From positions 800,377-864,376 of the forward strand of contig CAVVAH010000008.1 of assembly GCA_963746175.1 (NCBI GenBank): a stretch of 64,000 nt of DNA, read 5' to 3'. This DNA comes from an uncultured Actinomycetota bacterium (GTDB taxonomy: Bacteria > Actinomycetota > Actinomycetes > JACCUZ01). The notes beneath the pieces are model-generated. The model saw only the letters and a program-made list of their open reading frames with translations, did no database searches and was not told where the DNA came from. Both the position numbers and the translations under genes were made by a program. Of this stretch, positions 2,484 to 26,564 are shown in pieces. Position 1 is the first letter of the stretch. The number at the start of each line of letters is the position of its first letter.

Positions 2484-2725
2484 CGAGGTCGTGGCTGATG
2501 GCGGGCCATCAGACGGGGCCCAGGGCAGGCTGACGGTCGGGAGCGGTCCGGGGATCGTCGGCAGGCCGGTGGCCGACAAGGTCGGCAACGGCACCGGCAG
2601 CCCCGAGGCGAGGTGACATGGTGTCCGTAGCCCGGAATCGGATCAAACCGGGGTGATCTAGACCACACAGTCTCCGCCAGTGACCGCCCGGGACGGGACC
2701 TGACCGCCCCGGCTACCGTCGCCGG

Positions 2726-3982
2726 GTGACGACTCGCGCCGACGGATCCCGCCGGTCGCGCAACCCGATGGCCGGCCTGCCACGCGAGGTGGCCGTCCTC
2801 ACCGCAGTCGCCTTCGCCGTCGCCGTCGGCTTCGGCGTCGTCGCCCCCGCGATCCCCGAGTACGCCCGCGACTTCGGCGTCGGGCGCACGGCCGCCGGCG
2901 CGGTGATCTCGGCGTTCGCGTTCATGCGGCTGGTGTCCGCCCTCGGCAGCGGCCGCCTGGTCAACCGGTTCGGCGAGCGACTGGTGCTCGCCACCGGCAT
3001 CGGGATCGTGGCGGTGAGCAGCGCCCTGGCCGGTCTGGCCCAGACGTACACCCAGCTCCTTCTGCTGCGCGGTGTCGGCGGCGTCGGGTCCGCGATGTTC
3101 ACCGTCTCGGCCATCTCGCTGCTGCTGCGCGTCGTCGACGCCGACCAGCGCGGCAAGGCCACCGGCATGTGGCAGTCCGGCTTCCTCGTCGGCGCGATCG
3201 CCGGCCCCGCGATCGGGGGGCCGCTCACGGCCATCTCGTTGCGCGCGCCGTTCTTCGTCTACGCCGGGACGCTCGCAGTCGCCGGCGGAATCGGGCTGCT
3301 CTTCCTCACCCGCGCAGCGCTGCACGAGGCCGAGACGTCGACCACCGACGCCCGGGCCGTGACTCTGCCGCAGGCCTTACGGGTGTCGGGCTACCGGGCG
3401 GCGCTGGTGTCCAACCTCGGCAACGGGTGGGCCCTGTTCGGCGTACGCAGCTCGCTGATCCCGCTGTTCGTCACCGAAGGCATCGGCGCATCGGCCACCT
3501 GGACCGGCATCGGGTTCTTCGTGTCCGCGGCGGCGCAGGGCGGACTGCTGCTCGTCGCCGGCTCGTTCACCGACCGCGTCGGCCGGCGACCGGCGCTGCT
3601 CATCGGCGGTGCGGCCGCCACCGCCGCCATGCTGCTCGTCGCTGTGAGCGACTCACTCGCCGTCTACACCGTGGCGATGGCGCTGTTCGGCGCCGGTTCG
3701 GCCTTCCTGTCCGTGGCGCCGAGCGCGATCGTCGGCGACGTCGTGCACGGCAAGGGCGGCACCGTCGTGGCGGCGTTCCAGATGTCGGCCGACCTGGGAG
3801 CCGTCGTGGGGCCGCTGGCGGCGGGCTGGCTGGCCGACGACTACTCCTTCGGAGCGGCCTTCGGGGTCACCGCGGCCGTCCTCGCCGCCGGTCTGGTCAC
3901 GGCGTTCTTCTCCGCCGAGACCCGGCACCGCACCGACCCCGCAGACCGCAACCCGGACCCGTCGCCCGGCACATCCGGCTGA
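2726..3982 (+). CDS. MFS transporter (12-TMS type)
   Basis: Hydrophobic helices throughout, and the MFS motif region GRLVNRFGERLVL. Alternative start at 2768 (MAGLP). Confidence 0.75.
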   Translation: MTTRADGSRRSRNPMAGLPREVAVLTAVAFAVAVGFGVVAPAIPEYARDFGVGRTAAGAVISAFAFMRLVSALGSGRLVNRFGERLVLATGIGIVAVSSALAGLAQTYTQLLLLRGVGGVGSAMFTVSAISLLLRVVDADQRGKATGMWQSGFLVGAIAGPAIGGPLTAISLRAPFFVYAGTLAVAGGIGLLFLTRAALHEAETSTTDARAVTLPQALRVSGYRAALVSNLGNGWALFGVRSSLIPLFVTEGIGASATWTGIGFFVSAAAQGGLLLVAGSFTDRVGRRPALLIGGAAATAAMLLVAVSDSLAVYTVAMALFGAGSAFLSVAPSAIVGDVVHGKGGTVVAAFQMSADLGAVVGPLAAGWLADDYSFGAAFGVTAAVLAAGLVTAFFSAETRHRTDPADRNPDPSPGTSG

Positions 3983-16797: not shown

Positions 16798-18243
16798 TCA
16801 GCCGGCGGCGAGGTGCCCGAGCAGGTCCTGCCGGGTCAGGACACCGGCCGGCTTGCCGTCCTCGTGCACGAGCACCGCGTCGGACTTCGCGAGCGCAGCC
16901 GTCGCCGCCGACACCGGCTCCCCCGAGCCGACGATCGGCAGCGGCGCCGACATGTGCCGCTCCAGCGCGTCGGCGAGGTGCGCGTCACCGGAGAACAGCA
17001 GGTCGAGCAGCTCCTTCTCGCTGACCGAGCCGACGACCTCCCCCGCCGTCACCGGGGGCTCGGCCTTGACGACCGGCATCTGCGACACGCTGTACTCACG
17101 GAGGATGTCGATGGCCTCGCGGACCGTCTCGTACGGGTGCACGTGCACGAGCGTGGGCACCTCGGCGCCCTTGCTGGCGAGCACGTCGCCGACGGTGGTG
17201 CCCGAGGTGGAGTCGGCGTCGAGGAAGCCGTAGTCGGCCATCCAGTCGTCGTTGAAGATCTTGCCGAGGTAGCCGCGGCCGCTGTCCGGCAGCAGCACCA
17301 CCACCACGTCGTCCGCGGTGAGCCGTTCCGCGACCCGCAGCGCGGCGACGACCGCCATGCCGCAGGAGCCGCCGACGAGCAGACCCTCCTCGCGGGCCAG
17401 CCGCCGGGTCATGTGGAAGGAGTCGCGGTCGGACACGGCCACGATCTCGTCGGTCACGGTCCGGTCGTACGCCGACGGCCAGAAGTCCTCGCCGACTCCC
17501 TCGACGAGGTACGGCCGGCCGGTGCCGCCGGAGTAGACCGAGCCCTCCGGGTCGGCACCGACGATCTGCACCTTCCCGTCGCTGACCTCCTTGAGGTAGC
17601 GGCCGGTGCCACTGATGGTGCCGCCGGTGCCGACGCCGGTGACGAAGTGCGTGACGCGACCGTCGGTCTGCGTCCAGATCTCCGGCCCGGTCGTCTCGTA
17701 GTGCGACCGCGGGTTGTTCGGGTTGGAGTACTGGTCCGGCTTCCAGGCGCCGTCGATCTCGCGCACCAGCCGGTCGCTGACCGAGTAGTACGACCGCGGG
17801 TCCTCCGGCGACACGGCCGTGGGGCACACCTCGACGCGGGCGCCGTACGCCGTGAGCACGTTGATCTTGTCCTGGCTCACCTTGTCGGGCAGCACGAAGA
17901 CGCACTGGTAGCCGCGCTGCTGCGCGACCAGCGCGAGCCCGACGCCGGTGTTGCCGGAGGTCGGCTCGACGATGGTGCCGCCGGGCCGGAGCTCGCCGGA
18001 CTCCTCGGCGGCGTCGACCATCCGCACGGCGATCCGGTCCTTCACGGACCCGCCCGGGTTGAGGTACTCGACCTTCGCGAGCACGGTCGCCGGGACGTCC
18101 CGGGCGACGGACTTCAGCCTGACCAGCGGGGTGTTGCCGACCAGGTCGACCATGGACTCGTAGACCTGCATGGGCATGAGCGTAGAGCGCGGCTCGTGAC
18201 TCGCTCTCGAACGGGGAGCGTCGTGTGGCGCCCGATCCGTCAA
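16798..18243 (-). CDS. cbs: cystathionine beta-synthase (PLP cysteine-synthase fold plus tandem CBS domains)
   Basis: PLP-lysine motif SVKDR, GNTG, GTGGT, and C-terminal CBS pair. Alternative start at MPMQVY (18177). Confidence 0.85.
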   Translation of the reverse strand: MTDRAPHDAPRSRASHEPRSTLMPMQVYESMVDLVGNTPLVRLKSVARDVPATVLAKVEYLNPGGSVKDRIAVRMVDAAEESGELRPGGTIVEPTSGNTGVGLALVAQQRGYQCVFVLPDKVSQDKINVLTAYGARVEVCPTAVSPEDPRSYYSVSDRLVREIDGAWKPDQYSNPNNPRSHYETTGPEIWTQTDGRVTHFVTGVGTGGTISGTGRYLKEVSDGKVQIVGADPEGSVYSGGTGRPYLVEGVGEDFWPSAYDRTVTDEIVAVSDRDSFHMTRRLAREEGLLVGGSCGMAVVAALRVAERLTADDVVVVLLPDSGRGYLGKIFNDDWMADYGFLDADSTSGTTVGDVLASKGAEVPTLVHVHPYETVREAIDILREYSVSQMPVVKAEPPVTAGEVVGSVSEKELLDLLFSGDAHLADALERHMSAPLPIVGSGEPVSAATAALAKSDAVLVHEDGKPAGVLTRQDLLGHLAAG

Positions 18244-18482
18244 GGCGGAGGAGTTCCGCGTAGCGGTGTTCTACGCGGAACGACGAGAACACAGCCGGGC
18301 GGGATGCCACGCGGCGCGAGCCGAGATGGGGTCGCGAGCCTCGCTCTGAGGGCGTGACATCACGACGCCGGACCCGGCCGGGCCCGTCACGGGTCCGCTA
18401 GATTCGCGAGCGTGGCCCGCCCCCCTGCCGTGCAGCTCGCGCCGGGCGTCTGGCGTGTGCCCGGCCGGGCGGTGACGACCCG

Positions 18483-22329: not shown

Positions 22330-23130
22330 CTAGTCGCCGCGCAGGATCGCGATCAGGCGCAGCATCTCGATGTACAGCCACACCAGCGTGACGACGAGGC
22401 CGAAGGCCGCGAGCCAGGCGTAGCGCTCGGGGATGCCGTTCTTGACGCCCTGGTCGGCGAAGTCGAAGTCCAGGATGAGCATCGCGGCAGCCAGGCCGAC
22501 CGCGAACAACCCGATCAAGAAGCCGAACGGACCCTGTCGGAGACCGAAGTCGCCACCGCCACCGAAGAGCATCACCACGAGATTGACCAGGCAGAAGACC
22601 AGGTAGCCGCCCATCCCGATGAGGACGGTGCGGCGGAACTTCGGGGTGGCCCGGACCTTGCCGCTCTTGTACGCCGCGAGTGCCACGGCGAACACCGCCA
22701 GGGTGCCGATGACGGCCTGGGCGACGACGCCCGGCCAGCGGTTCTCGAACGCCTGGCTGATGCCGCCGATGAAGAGGCCCTCGGCGGCGGCGTAGCCGAT
22801 GATGAGTGCGGGGCTGGTCGACTGCTTGAACGAGACGACGAGACCGAGCACCAGCCCGGCGATCGCACCGCCGATCGTGAGCAGCGGGCTGGCGAGCCAC
22901 CAGTTCACGGCGGCGGCCGGCACCAGCACCGCGAAGAGGATGCCGGTCCTGATGACGACGTCGTCCATCGTCATGCGGCCGGTGTCGACCCCGCTGGCGG
23001 GCGGCGCGTTGTACATGTCCTCGAGCTGGCCGGCGGTCGCGGTGGGCACGGCCGACTGCTCGTTGAACGTGGCGTACCCCTTCTGCGAGAACGCCTTGCT
23101 GTTGTTGAAGACCGGGTTGCGGCTCTCCAT
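22330..23130 (-). CDS. Bax inhibitor-1 / YccA (TMBIM) family membrane protein
   Basis: 266 aa, seven hydrophobic helices. N-terminal NPVFNN...KGY typical of the BI-1/YccA family. Confidence 0.75.
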   Translation of the reverse strand: MESRNPVFNNSKAFSQKGYATFNEQSAVPTATAGQLEDMYNAPPASGVDTGRMTMDDVVIRTGILFAVLVPAAAVNWWLASPLLTIGGAIAGLVLGLVVSFKQSTSPALIIGYAAAEGLFIGGISQAFENRWPGVVAQAVIGTLAVFAVALAAYKSGKVRATPKFRRTVLIGMGGYLVFCLVNLVVMLFGGGGDFGLRQGPFGFLIGLFAVGLAAAMLILDFDFADQGVKNGIPERYAWLAAFGLVVTLVWLYIEMLRLIAILRGD

Positions 23131-23230
23131 GACACTCCTCCGTGGGGTGCCCGCGGGAAGTCGCGGGACAGGATCCTGCCCAGAGTAACGACAAGGGCGG
23201 ATCCCGCGTTCCCCGAACGGGTGACGAACG

Positions 23231-23305
23231 TGCCCCCGGTGGGACTCGAACCCACACTGGACCCGCTTTTAAGGCGAGCGCCTCGACCAATTGGGCTACA
23301 GGGGC
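23231..23305 (-). tRNA. tRNA gene, class I (short variable loop), apparent anticodon UAA (would read UUA Leu), discriminator A
   Basis: Minus-strand sequence GCCCCTGTAGCCCAATTGGTCGAGGCGCTCGCCTTAAAAGCGGGTCCAGTGTGGGTTCGAGTCCCACCGGGGGCA. 7-bp acceptor stem, GGTTCGAGTCC T-loop, anticodon stem CTCGC/GCGGG with loop CTTAAAA. No CCA encoded. Confidence 0.8.
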
Positions 23306-23379
23306 GGCTGCGGCTCGCCCACCCGCTCTCGACGAGTGAGCGTGTCGAGGCGGACGCGTAGCGTTCTCGCGAGCGAACG

Positions 23380-23918
23380 AAACGACGGATGCATCGGCGG
23401 CGCGAGCGGCGGGGTGCAGGGCATCCGCCGGCCCGGTCGAGGAACAGCAGCCCGTCGAGGTGGTCGATCTCGTGCTGCAGGGCGCGGGCCTCGAAGCCGT
23501 CGGTCTCGATCTCGACCTCGGCGCCGGTCCCTGGCACCACCGCCAGGACCACCAGCCGGGTGGCTCGCTTGACGTCACCGGTGAGGTCGGGCACCGACAG
23601 ACAGCCCTCCCGGCCGCGCTCCCAGCGGCTCGCCGACGCCACCGCCGGGTTCGCCAGCACCAGCGCGCCGTGGCAGGCCTTGGTCCGCGGGTGATCGGAG
23701 ACGTCCAACGAGAGCACCCGGAGGGGCACCCCGACCTGCGGCGCTGCGAGCCCTACGCAGCCGGCCGCGGAACGCTGCGTCGCCAGCAGGTCGGCAGCCA
23801 GCGCCAGGACGTCCGGGTCGAGCGGGTCGACCTCCTCCGCTCGCGAGGACAGCACCCTCGCGGGCGCCAGCACCGACTGCCGCACCCGCCCGACAGGAAG
23901 GGGCGGGAGCAGGCTCAC
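23380..23918 (-). CDS. def: peptide deformylase (C-terminus uncertain; no in-frame stop before the tRNA)
   Basis: GLAAPQVG, EGCLSVP and QHEIDHLDG motifs. The ORF runs on without a stop to 22971, through the tRNA, so a frameshift or lost stop is inferred. Confidence 0.75.
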
Positions 23919-24433
23919 AGCACGTCGGGGTCGAGGACCCGCAGGGAGACGTCCACGCCGAGGTCGCTGCCGACCGCCGCGAGGTCCCGGCTCAGCTCCT
24001 CCGGGTCGACCGCTCCCGGCAGGTCGACCTCGGCGAGCAGGACGTAGAGGTCGCCCGAGAGCCGGGTCGACAGGTCGGTGACGTTGCCGCCGGCCTCCGC
24101 GACCAGCCCCGTGACGGTCGCGACGATCCCGGGCCGGTCGGCCCCGTGCACCGAGAGGAGGTACGTCGAGCCGAGCGCCGTCGCGGGGTCCTCGTACGGG
24201 ATCTCCCGCACCGACACCTGCAGCGTGCCGTCGGCGGAGAGCGAGCGCAGCGCGTCCTCGGCCTCGGCCGGCGTGACCTCGGCATGGGCGACCACCACCA
24301 TCGCGAAGTGACCCCGCAGGATGGTCATCGTCGAGTCCTCGAGGTTCGCCCCGAGCTCCGCGAGCACTCCGGTCGTCTCGGCGATGATGCCCGGCCGGTC
24401 ATGGCCGAGGACGGTGACCGCGAGCAGCGTCAC
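23915..24433 (-). CDS. tandem ACT-domain protein (GcvR-like regulator)
   Basis: Two VxVxGxDRPGIVA ACT signatures: VTVLGHDRPGIIAETTGVLA and LSVHGADRPGIVATVTGLVA. GTG start. Stop overlaps the def start. Confidence 0.65.
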   Translation of the reverse strand: MTLLAVTVLGHDRPGIIAETTGVLAELGANLEDSTMTILRGHFAMVVVAHAEVTPAEAEDALRSLSADGTLQVSVREIPYEDPATALGSTYLLSVHGADRPGIVATVTGLVAEAGGNVTDLSTRLSGDLYVLLAEVDLPGAVDPEELSRDLAAVGSDLGVDVSLRVLDPDVL

Positions 24434-25765
24434 CGGCTTGCCTCGCTGAACTCCTCGCGGGGTCGCTGCAGCGACCCGAGCGACACCACGTCCCGGCGGA
24501 AGAAGAGCGCCAGCGTCCAGTCGAGGACGACCCGGACCTTGCGGTTGAACGTCGGGACCCGGCTCACGTGGTAGGTCCGGTGCATGAACCAGGCCGGGAA
24601 GCCGCGCAGCTTGACGCCGTAGACCTGCGCGACCCCCTTGTGCAGGCCGAGCGAGGCCACCGACCCCACGTGCTTGTGCGCGTAGGCCCGCGGGTCGCGG
24701 CCGTTGAGCACCAGGGCGATGTTGTCGCCGAGGACCTTGGCCTGGCGTACGGCGTGCTGCGCGCTCGGGCTGGTCGCGGACTCCCGGGCCGGCCGTCAGG
24801 TCGGGGACCGACGCGCCGTCCCCGGCCGACCAGGCACCGTCGACGTCCTCCACCCGCAGGTCCGGCCGGCAGCGCAGCCGGCCCTTGTCGTCGAGCGGCA
24901 GGCCGGTCCTCGCGAGCACCGGGTTGGCCCTGACGCCGGCGGTCCAGACGATCGTGTCGGCGTCGAACGCCGTGCCGTCGGACAGCACGACGTGGCCGTC
25001 GACGCACGACTCGAGCCGGGTGTCCAGCCGGACGTCGATCTTGCGCTTCACCAGCTCGCGGACCGTGTACCGCCCGAGGTCCTCCCCGACCTCCGGGAGG
25101 ATCCGGCCGGTGGCCTCGACGAGCACGAAGCGGATGTCGCCCTTGGACAGCTCCGGGTAGTAGCGGGTCGCGTAGGTGGTCATGTCCTCCAGCTCGGCCA
25201 GCGCCTCGATCCCGGCGTAGCCACCACCGACGAACACGAACGTGAGCAGCTTGCGGCGCTCGGCGTGGTCGGTGACGCTCGTCGCGATGTCGAGCTTCTC
25301 GAGGACCTGGTTGCGCAGCGCGATGGCCTCCTCGACCTGCTTGAACCCGATGCCCTGCTCGGCCAGCCCCGGGATCGGCAGGGTGCGCGCGATGGACCCG
25401 GGCGCCAGCACCACCACCTCGTAGGACAGCTCGTACGCGTCCCCTCGGGGAGGCTGGATCACCGCGACCCGGCGCTCGTGGTCGAGCGAGACGAACCGGC
25501 CGGTGAGGACCTCGCACTTGTCGAGGACGCGGCGCAGCGGGACGACGACGTGCCGCGGCTCGACGCTGCCGGCAGCCGCCTCGGGCAGGAACGGCTGGTA
25601 GGTCATGTACGACCGGGGGTCGACGACGATGACCTCGACCCGCTTCGCCTTGATCTCGGACCGGAGCCGGCGCTGCAGCCGCAGTGCGGTGTACATCCCG
25701 ACGTAGCCGCCACCGACGATCAGGATGCGGGTCCGTCCGGGTGAGGCAGCGGGCGTGATCGCCAT
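24430..25765 (-). CDS. ndh: type II NADH dehydrogenase (NDH-2) with an apparent frameshift near 24790
   Basis: ILIVGGGYVGMYTA Rossmann motif, a second FVGGGYAG. The C-terminus (NGRDPRAYAHKH...WFMHRTYH) lies in a different frame (ORF 24430-24711). Confidence 0.7.
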
Positions 25766-25767
25766 GA

Positions 25768-26564
25768 TCAGACTGTATTCCGCAGCCCCGCGACGGTGGC
25801 CGCCCGGTCCAGGACCTGGTCGAGCATCTCCTCGGTCAGCCGGCCGGTGAAGGTGTTCTGCTGGCTCGGGTGGAACGAGCCGACAACGGTCACGGCACCG
25901 ATGACCGCCTCCGCGCCGTGACCGAAGCGCGGTCGTGGGCGGGGCTCTCCAGGCCGAGCCTGGACAGGCAGCCCGAACGTCGCCTGCCAGGCGAAGGCAC
26001 CGAGGGCGACGACGACCCGCAGCTGCGGCAGCAGCAGCGCGACCTCGGCGTCCATCCACGGCGCGCAGGTGTCCCGCTCGGCGGGCGTGGGCGCGTTGGC
26101 CGGCGGCGCGCAGCGCACCGGCGCCAGCATCCGCGTGCCGATCAGCCGCTGCCCGTCGCCGGCGCGCGTGCTGGTCGGCCGGGCGGCCAGCCCGACCCGG
26201 TGCAGCGCCGCGAACAACCAGTCGCCGCTGCGGTCACCGGTGAAGATCCGGCCGGTCCGGTTGCCGCCGTGGGCGGCCGGCGCGAGGCCGACCACGAGCG
26301 ACGGCGCCGCGGGTCGCCCCAGCCCGCGATCGGCCGACCCCAGTACTGCTCGGCGTCGAACGACCTCCGCCGGTCGACGGCGACCTGCTCGCGCCACTGC
26401 ACGAGCCGTGGGCAGGCACGGCACACCGAGACGGCTGCGTCGAGCTCGGGCAGCGTGACCGCGGCGCGCGGCCAGCCGGCGTACGTCGTCGGGCGACGAC
26501 GCGACCGGGGTGCGCCCGTCGGCGGGGTCGTCCGGCCACCCGGTGCCCGGCGGCACCGGACCAC
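25768..26564 (-). CDS. uracil-DNA glycosylase, family 4/5 (UdgB-like, GLAPA motif) with an apparent frameshift near 26290
   Basis: CRACPRL Fe-S motif in one frame. [26 protein letters not shown] and GAFAW...HPS motifs in another. Confidence 0.6.

Follow-up and report, generated by a model that had tools for sequence, protein, structure and literature searches.

The tRNA gene in the window, by which we mean the whole 64-kb stretch of DNA analyzed here, is very probably the normal tRNA-Leu(UAA) of its genome, with a predicted function and with the short-loop type I architecture that is common in Actinomycetota. Type I actinobacterial tRNA-Leu(UAA) as such is already known. The only tRNA that ARAGORN found in the window lies on the minus strand at 23230-23305 and was typed as tRNA-Leu with the anticodon taa. 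The Rfam tRNA model RF00005 matched 23231-23305 (minus strand) from end to end and in the same register with 57.5 bits (E = 4e-11; the gathering score of the model is 29). Neither program proposed another register. The initial annotation had described a class I tRNA with the anticodon UAA, which would read UUA (Leu), and both assignments are correct; the coordinates and features it gave for 23231-23305 are all present in the sequence as described. The gene and its two diagnostic parts are as follows.

23231..23305, minus strand: tRNA-Leu(UAA), type I (short variable loop), 75 nt, no CCA (ARAGORN; Rfam RF00005, 57.5 bits)
23269..23271, minus strand: anticodon UAA in the 7-nt loop CUUAAAA (23267-23273), its register set by the 5-bp anticodon stem
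23256..23261, minus strand: variable region UCCAGU, 6 nt, stemless, the last base of which (U48) can pair with A15 (structural parse)

Counted to the discriminator A73, the gene forms a 75-nt cloverleaf without an encoded CCA, which reads in full GCCCCUG-UA-GCCC-AAUUGGUCG-AGGC-G-CUCGC-CUUAAAA-GCGGG-UCCAGU-GUGGG-UUCGAGU-CCCAC-CGGGGGC-A. The acceptor stem (GCCCCUG/CGGGGGC) is followed by U8 and A9, the D stem consists of GCC/GGC and a C13.A22 mismatch around the D loop AAUUGGUCG, the anticodon stem is CUCGC/GCGGG with the loop CUUAAAA and UAA at 23269-23271, and the T arm is GUGGG-UUCGAGU-CCCAC. All four stems pair perfectly. No stem is possible in the variable region, and its 6 nt place the tRNA outside class II, which has a variable arm of more than 10 nt with a stem. 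A promoter scan found no promoter-like site around the gene, and a terminator scan of the same surroundings returned two weak terminator-like matches, the meaning of which is not obvious.

To define the family of this tRNA, one genome per GTDB species was scanned with the pattern CTTAAAA, N12-18, GGTTCRARTCC, that is, with a UAA anticodon loop too near the T arm to fit a long variable arm. The scan gave at least 120 matches, and ARAGORN called a tRNA-Leu(taa) of 73-78 nt at no fewer than about 100 of these loci. Among the matches listed, most belong to Actinomycetota of many orders, including Nocardioides, Mycobacterium, Mycolicibacterium, Nocardia, Gordonia, Rhodococcus, Tsukamurella, Dietzia, Williamsia, Corynebacterium, Arthrobacter, Pseudarthrobacter, Microbacterium, Leucobacter, Herbiconiux, Rothia, Citricoccus, Intrasporangium, Actinomyces, Arcanobacterium, Bifidobacteriaceae, Nonomuraea, Streptosporangium, Kibdelosporangium, Nakamurella and Acidimicrobiia; a few of those listed come from Planctomycetota, Rokubacteria and other groups. 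The equivalent CAA scan of metagenomes also yielded at least 120 matches and at least 74 tRNA-Leu(caa) genes, 27 of which carry the D arm CCCAA..GGYMGAGG; the D arm of these type I genes is as in the window tRNA. Short-loop tRNA-Leu that read UUR thus form a widespread and previously described family. The premise of the initial annotation that bacterial tRNA-Leu are class II fails for the UUR-reading isoacceptors of Actinomycetota, where short-loop Leu(UAA) and Leu(CAA) are common, M. tuberculosis H37Rv and M. smegmatis included.

The family consensus is GCCCCCGUAGCCCAAUnGGCAGAGGCAG-...-CUUAAAA-...-nCAGU-GUGGGUUCGAGUCCCAC-CGGGGGCA, and the window tRNA plainly belongs to it. The variable region of 113 taa tRNAs (the matches listed, the window and its relatives) measures 5 nt in 96, 6 nt in eight, 7 nt in five and 8 nt in one; for the 98 unique short-loop sequences from the same sources the corresponding numbers are 87, 7, 3 and 1. 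With 6 nt, the window tRNA lies at the long edge of the family range, one nucleotide over the typical 5. The CUUAAAA loop is identical in 98 of 98 unique sequences, as the search pattern required. Covariation was assessed in an alignment of 70 distinct family sequences, using the majority register for the pair count. Cloverleaf pairs were formed in 99.0% of cells versus 75.1% in shuffles, both sides had changed in 17 of the 20 pairs, and the covariation score was 0.620 versus 0.154 after shuffling; none of 500 shuffles reached the observed values. Pairing fell to 33-55% once the 3' partners were slid by 1-3 columns. Both-side changes occur in all five pairs of the anticodon stem, and the register of the loop, hence the anticodon, is therefore fixed. 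MAFFT placed the extra variable-loop base in anticodon-stem columns; positions in the 98 sequences were parsed structurally instead.

The nucleotides that specify leucine are also in place. The identity set of E. coli LeuRS comprises A73, A14 (U8-A14), A15-U48, G18G19/U55C56 and U54-A58, and nucleotide 48 has to be present (PMC6614811). Every one of these elements, nucleotide 48 included, is found in the window tRNA. In the structural parse of the 98 unique sequences (matches listed), A73 is present in 96, A14A15 in 95 and U48 in 95, and the C13.A22 mismatch recurs in 93; in the 70-sequence alignment, G18, G19, U54, U55, C56 and A58 are invariant. The family D loop, AAYYGGYMG, is similar to the D loop of E. 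coli class II tRNA-Leu, with which the window tRNA shares the layout of this loop. When compared with 40 tRNAs of M. tuberculosis, the window tRNA is nearest to Leu-TAA (81%, 61/75 positions), followed by Leu-CAA (76%), with Lys-TTT at 68%.

Known members of the family include genes of mycobacteria. The Leu-TAA gene of M. tuberculosis H37Rv (chr.trna12, 1177396-1177469) is 74 nt long, reads GCCCCCATAGCCCAATTGGCAGAGGCAGCGGACTTAAAATCCGTCAAGTGTCGGTTCGAGTCCGACTGGGGGCA and has a tRNAscan-SE score of 63.13, and that of M. smegmatis mc2 155 is 74 nt long with a score of 63.84 (PMC11541572, supplementary file 5). Both are clear members of the window tRNA's family. Leu-CAA is short in both species as well, and long variable loops are confined in M. 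tuberculosis to tRNA-Leu-2, -3 and -5 (PMC11541572). Mycobacterial Leu-TAA shares with the window tRNA its isotype, anticodon, short-loop architecture, D arm (GCCC-AAUUGG..GAGGC), CUUAAAA loop, the ..AGU end of the variable region, the T loop UUCGAGU and A73. The M. tuberculosis gene differs in a variable loop of 5 nt (CAAGU, compared with UCCAGU in the window), in the D loop (...GGCAG versus ...GGUCG) and in the sequence of the anticodon stem.

How LeuRS handles such tRNAs is known from Streptomyces coelicolor. Its natural tRNA-Leu(CAA) is of type I, with the 5-nt loop ACAGC, and the single LeuRS of this organism leucylates it (Fan et al. 2019, PMC6614811), about half as efficiently as the class II UAA isoacceptor (PMC6614811). 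Removing all five base pairs from the long arm of S. coelicolor tRNA-Leu(UAA) left acceptance intact, the minimum variable loop for the enzyme is 5 nt including N48, and earlier work cited there had shown that the type I tRNA takes the place of bldA in vivo once its anticodon is UAA (PMC6614811). To recognize type I tRNA, ScoLeuRS needs its residues 730-733 (Fan et al. 2019, PMC6614811). Compared by published features rather than by full sequence, the S. coelicolor type I tRNA and the window tRNA have in common a short loop and a UUR codon, while the former has the anticodon CAA and C48 and the latter UAA and U48; moreover, the UAA isoacceptor of S. coelicolor is class II, whereas that of the window is type I. 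Class II tRNA-Leu(UAA) of the bldA (Streptomyces) and leuZ (E. coli) type correspond to the window tRNA in anticodon and codon, UUA being rare in a high-GC actinobacterium, but their acceptor and D-stem sequences are unlike those of the window tRNA. Human mitochondrial tRNA-Leu(UUR) is likewise a class I tRNA with anticodon UAA and A73; unlike the window tRNA, it is organellar, AT-rich and structurally fragile. It is not charged by S. coelicolor LeuRS (PMC6614811) and therefore has a different recognition set; no evidence supports a relationship between it and the window tRNA.

The position of the gene in the chromosome is conserved as well. Its neighbors, all on the same strand, are listed below together with the class II genes that occupy the corresponding slot in three related loci.

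22330..23130, minus strand: gene for a Bax-inhibitor-1-like (BaxI) membrane protein, the conserved downstream neighbor of the tRNA (Pfam BaxI_1, E = 3.5e-85)
23316..23433, minus strand: damaged 3' end of def and def-tRNA spacer (alignment with L001)
23434..23918, minus strand: conserved part of a def paralog with intact GLAAPQ, EGCLSVP and QHEIDH motifs (Pfam PF01327 Pep_deformylase, E = 4e-37)
23915..24433, minus strand: gene for an ACT-domain protein, the conserved upstream neighbor of def (Pfam ACT_6/ACT), equivalent to a 172-aa gene in L001
about 24430-25765, minus strand: gene for NDH-2 (type II NADH dehydrogenase), with a frameshift at 24775
L003 3823-3906, L004 3817-3900 and L132 1325-1409: class II tRNA-Leu(UAA) in the def-tRNA-BaxI slot

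The gene order DLH-UDG-NDH2-ACT-def-[tRNA]-BaxI-PNPOx is kept in all 13 related loci that we fetched via BaxI homologs, and ARAGORN places a tRNA-Leu(taa) in the def-BaxI slot of each of the 13. Parts of this arrangement are seen much farther afield: NDH2-ACT-def-tRNA-BaxI in Nonomuraea, ACT-def-tRNA in several Nocardioides, NDH2-tRNA-BaxI in Rothia and some uncultured lineages, and NDH2-tRNA in many Micrococcales. The shared tRNA sequence family and the shared neighborhood show that the window gene is the ortholog of a tRNA gene long resident at this locus in Actinomycetota. It is an ordinary ortholog, in the same slot and of the same family, and not the unusual tRNA suggested initially. A close relative, L001, is an independent ENA metagenome contig that is 99% identical to the window; its tRNA is identical, including the CTTAAAA loop, and its BaxI-like protein has the same sequence as that encoded at 22330-23130. 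The tRNA of the JGI contig L133 is also identical to that of the window, though its BaxI is only 84% identical, and the tRNAs of L129 (BaxI 95% identical) and of L130 and L131 (86%) differ from it in the D loop alone.

Within this clade the variable region changes in length. It has 6 nt in the window, L001, L129-L131 and L133, 8 nt in L005 (whose NDH-2 protein has its nearest counterparts, with about 68% identity, in Propionibacteriales-like MAGs), and 7 nt in L006-L008, where a compensatory change from C31-G39 to U31-A39 keeps the anticodon stem. The same slot in L003, L004 and L132 holds a different tRNA body, a class II gene with a 13-nt arm (3 bp and a GCGA loop), the acceptor GCCCGGG and the D arm GUGGAA, both of which are like those of E. 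coli tRNA-Leu(UAA). The long arm of tRNA-Leu(UAA) spans 13 nt in L003 and 17 nt in S. coelicolor (PMC6614811), as opposed to 6 nt in the window. The BaxI proteins of L003, L004 and L132 are 85-86% identical to that of the window, which nests this lineage among those with short-loop tRNAs. We also considered that the class II gene of L003 had simply lost its long arm, and ruled this out, as the two tRNAs differ in every stem; therefore, one tRNA body was exchanged for the other within the slot. A class II gene fills this slot in a sister lineage, so the type I form can be dispensed with or replaced. We would suggest only tentatively that this clade of uncultured soil Actinomycetota, with a 6-, 7- or 8-nt type I or a 13-nt class II tRNA-Leu(UAA) in one slot where most other Actinomycetota have a 5-nt loop, treats these forms as interchangeable. 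The 6-8-nt loops and the class II replacement might offer a natural series for studying the tolerance of LeuRS to loop length.

Putting these features together, the window tRNA would be transcribed from the minus strand downstream of def and then processed, and its CCA would be added post-transcriptionally, because it is not encoded in the gene. LeuRS would then attach leucine without reading the anticodon or a long arm, as may be extrapolated from the work on E. coli and S. coelicolor. For this the enzyme would depend on A73, the pairs U8-A14 and A15-U48 (the latter being the Levitt pair), the elbow formed by G18G19/U55C56 and a variable loop no shorter than 5 nt, nucleotide 48 included, all of which the gene has. 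By analogy with these systems, we infer that the tRNA is leucylated by the organism's own LeuRS. It would decode UUA and probably, by wobble, UUG. A separate class II tRNA-Leu(UAA) gene may exist elsewhere in the genome, outside the 64-kb window. The genome has a GC content of roughly 72%, and UUA is indeed very rare: in a crude ORF set from the 64-kb window only, the high-GC3 ORFs contain one TTA in 16,724 codons, which is codon 232 of the ORF for an MFS transporter (2684-3982, plus strand).

Several other readings of the gene were weighed against that of a normal tRNA-Leu(UAA). One is that a tRNA of another identity (Lys-, Phe- or Thr-like) acquired a UAA anticodon and mistranslates UUA; the initial annotation had proposed a mutated tRNA-Lys-like gene. 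The acceptor GCCCCUG...CGGGGGCA does resemble that of mycobacterial tRNA-Lys(UUU), GCCCCUA...GGGGGCA, and deliberately mistranslating tRNAs, built on tRNA-Pro bodies with other anticodons, exist in Streptomyces. However, the D arm GCCC-AAUUGGUCG-AGGC, with A15 and C13.A22, and U48 are of the Leu type, whereas M. tuberculosis tRNA-Lys(UUU) has the D arm AGCUCAGUUGGUAGAGC and G at position 15. Neither this D arm nor the UUU or CUU anticodon of tRNA-Lys is found here, the anticodon being UAA in all orthologs. One tRNA body with one anticodon has also been kept at one locus across orders, as for an ordinary decoder. A tRNA-Lys-like origin is ruled out by the D arm, by U48 and by the comparison with the 40 M. 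tuberculosis tRNAs, and we regard a mistranslating tRNA of any such identity as highly improbable. Less credible still, to the point of being negligible, is the idea that the anticodon loop was misassembled or miscalled and truly reads CTTTTAA or something else. It had been raised at the outset, and probable indel errors do lie near the tRNA, namely at 24775, where NDH-2 is frameshifted, and between 23410 and 23433, where a cluster of C is missing. Against it, CTTAAAA is identical in independent assemblies of other samples (L001, L129-L131 and L133), which rules out an error at the anticodon; every ortholog compared has this loop and none has CTTTTAA. The loop is present in finished genomes, e.g., in tRNA-Leu(UAA) of M. 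tuberculosis H37Rv, and it recurs in the tRNA-Leu(UAA) genes from the genome scan, the pattern of which itself required it. A change from T4A2 to T2A4 would, moreover, take two substitutions, which is atypical of indel errors.

The remaining alternatives concern function. The gene could be a decaying or non-functional remnant that persists as UUA is almost unused, the 6-8-nt loops reflecting relaxed constraint. The drift of the variable loop to 6, 7 and 8 nt in this clade, compared with 5 nt elsewhere, the decay of the adjoining def and the class II replacement in a sister lineage would all fit. Yet the four stems pair perfectly and the identity nucleotides are all intact, the tRNA is constant outside the D loop across genomes in which BaxI has diverged to 84% identity, and even in the more distant L006-L008 the anticodon stem still pairs, a C-G pair having become U-A by compensation. 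With such conservation the remnant reading, also voiced initially, becomes very unlikely. A further possibility refines the main explanation and does not replace it: a functional tRNA-Leu(UAA) could in addition act as a bldA-like regulatory bottleneck, the amount or the maturation of the tRNA setting a limit to translation of the few UUA-containing genes. The extreme rarity of UUA (one TTA in about 16,700 high-GC3 codons of the window) speaks for it, and bldA, the Streptomyces tRNA-Leu(UAA) gene, has such a role (PMC6614811). On the other hand, codon rarity can be explained by GC content alone, the sequence bears no sign of regulated expression (no promoter-like site in the scan), and the bldA paradigm belongs to developmental streptomycetes and is not known to extend to mycobacteria, in which this type I tRNA is found as well. 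A bldA-like role is therefore conceivable from the rarity of the codon, which is the one observation pointing to it, and we rate it as rather unlikely. The normal tRNA-Leu(UAA) remains the preferred reading: a short-loop UAA tRNA in a high-GC actinobacterium is best taken for this normal gene, rather than for an error, an anomaly or something odd and suppressor-like.

The initial annotation had also noted that the def reading frame overlaps the tRNA. The open frame is real: the deformylase-like ORF that begins at 23918 on the minus strand has no in-frame stop until 22971 and crosses the tRNA into the BaxI gene. It stems, however, from damage to the 3' end of def and does not reflect an arrangement of overlapping genes. 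The window def aligns to 176-aa orthologs as far as ...LDGLLFLDR; the orthologs end in ...LFLDRVAGAHA(L/V)(H/Y)PRQ(T/V)YL*, with the stop 13-42 nt upstream of the tRNA. Against L001, six single bases, C or TC in every case, are missing from the CG-rich stretch 23410-23433 of the window, together with about 98 nt of the spacer that follows, the TGA stop included. The frame reads through the tRNA because these 3'-end deletions took its stop, and the shifted frame stays open into BaxI because roughly 70% GC leaves few chance stops. Whether the differences are true deletions or assembly errors, the def-tRNA overlap is without functional meaning, and the locus illustrates how a small 3'-end lesion can make a long GC-rich ORF appear to cross a neighboring gene.

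In the sublineage of the window, def looks dispensable or decaying. The L001 copy (L001 2110-2640) is frameshifted and has Gly in place of Glu in its catalytic EGCLS motif, L129 has lost def save for about 45 nt (L129 1253-1327), and more distant relatives have an intact 176-aa gene. The different lesions in the window, L001 and L129 suggest that loss of def is ongoing in the sublineage, and errors of consensus or assembly may account for some of the single-base differences. The window NDH-2 gene has one extra G at 24775 compared with the intact 444-aa gene of L001, and this frameshift produces an artificial 714-aa NDH2-ACT fusion ORF at 23915-26059. The NDH-2 genes of L003 and L004, from the same ENA assembly series, are split; given the split and frameshifted NDH-2 genes, this series seems to be indel-prone.

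Some minor observations concern repeats and mobile elements. The def-tRNA spacer of L001 contains (at L001 2660-2794) an element of about 135 nt between the inverted repeats GGGCGTGTCC and GGACACGCCC, a copy of which, 85% identical, lies at 18199-18332 of the window. The element, of which the def-tRNA spacer of the window retains only a part, is possibly a small dispersed palindromic repeat. We looked in the 64-kb window for a partial duplicate of the tRNA 3' half, a sign of integrative elements, and found none, so an integrative element beside the window tRNA was rejected. Among other scan loci, L042 (in two copies), L050, L063, L068 and L100 have only the 3' half of a type I tRNA-Leu(UAA), from the anticodon loop on, joined to unrelated upstream sequence; these half-tRNAs look like att-type duplicates left by integrative elements that target tRNA-Leu(UAA). 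Three non-actinobacterial scan matches, L107, L115 and L056, lie in dense arrays of 10-20 compact tRNA genes, in which several tRNA-Leu isoacceptors (UAA, CAA, CAG and UAG) are all short-loop; the arrays resemble the mobile or phage-like tRNA clusters of some mycobacteria (PMC6582537).
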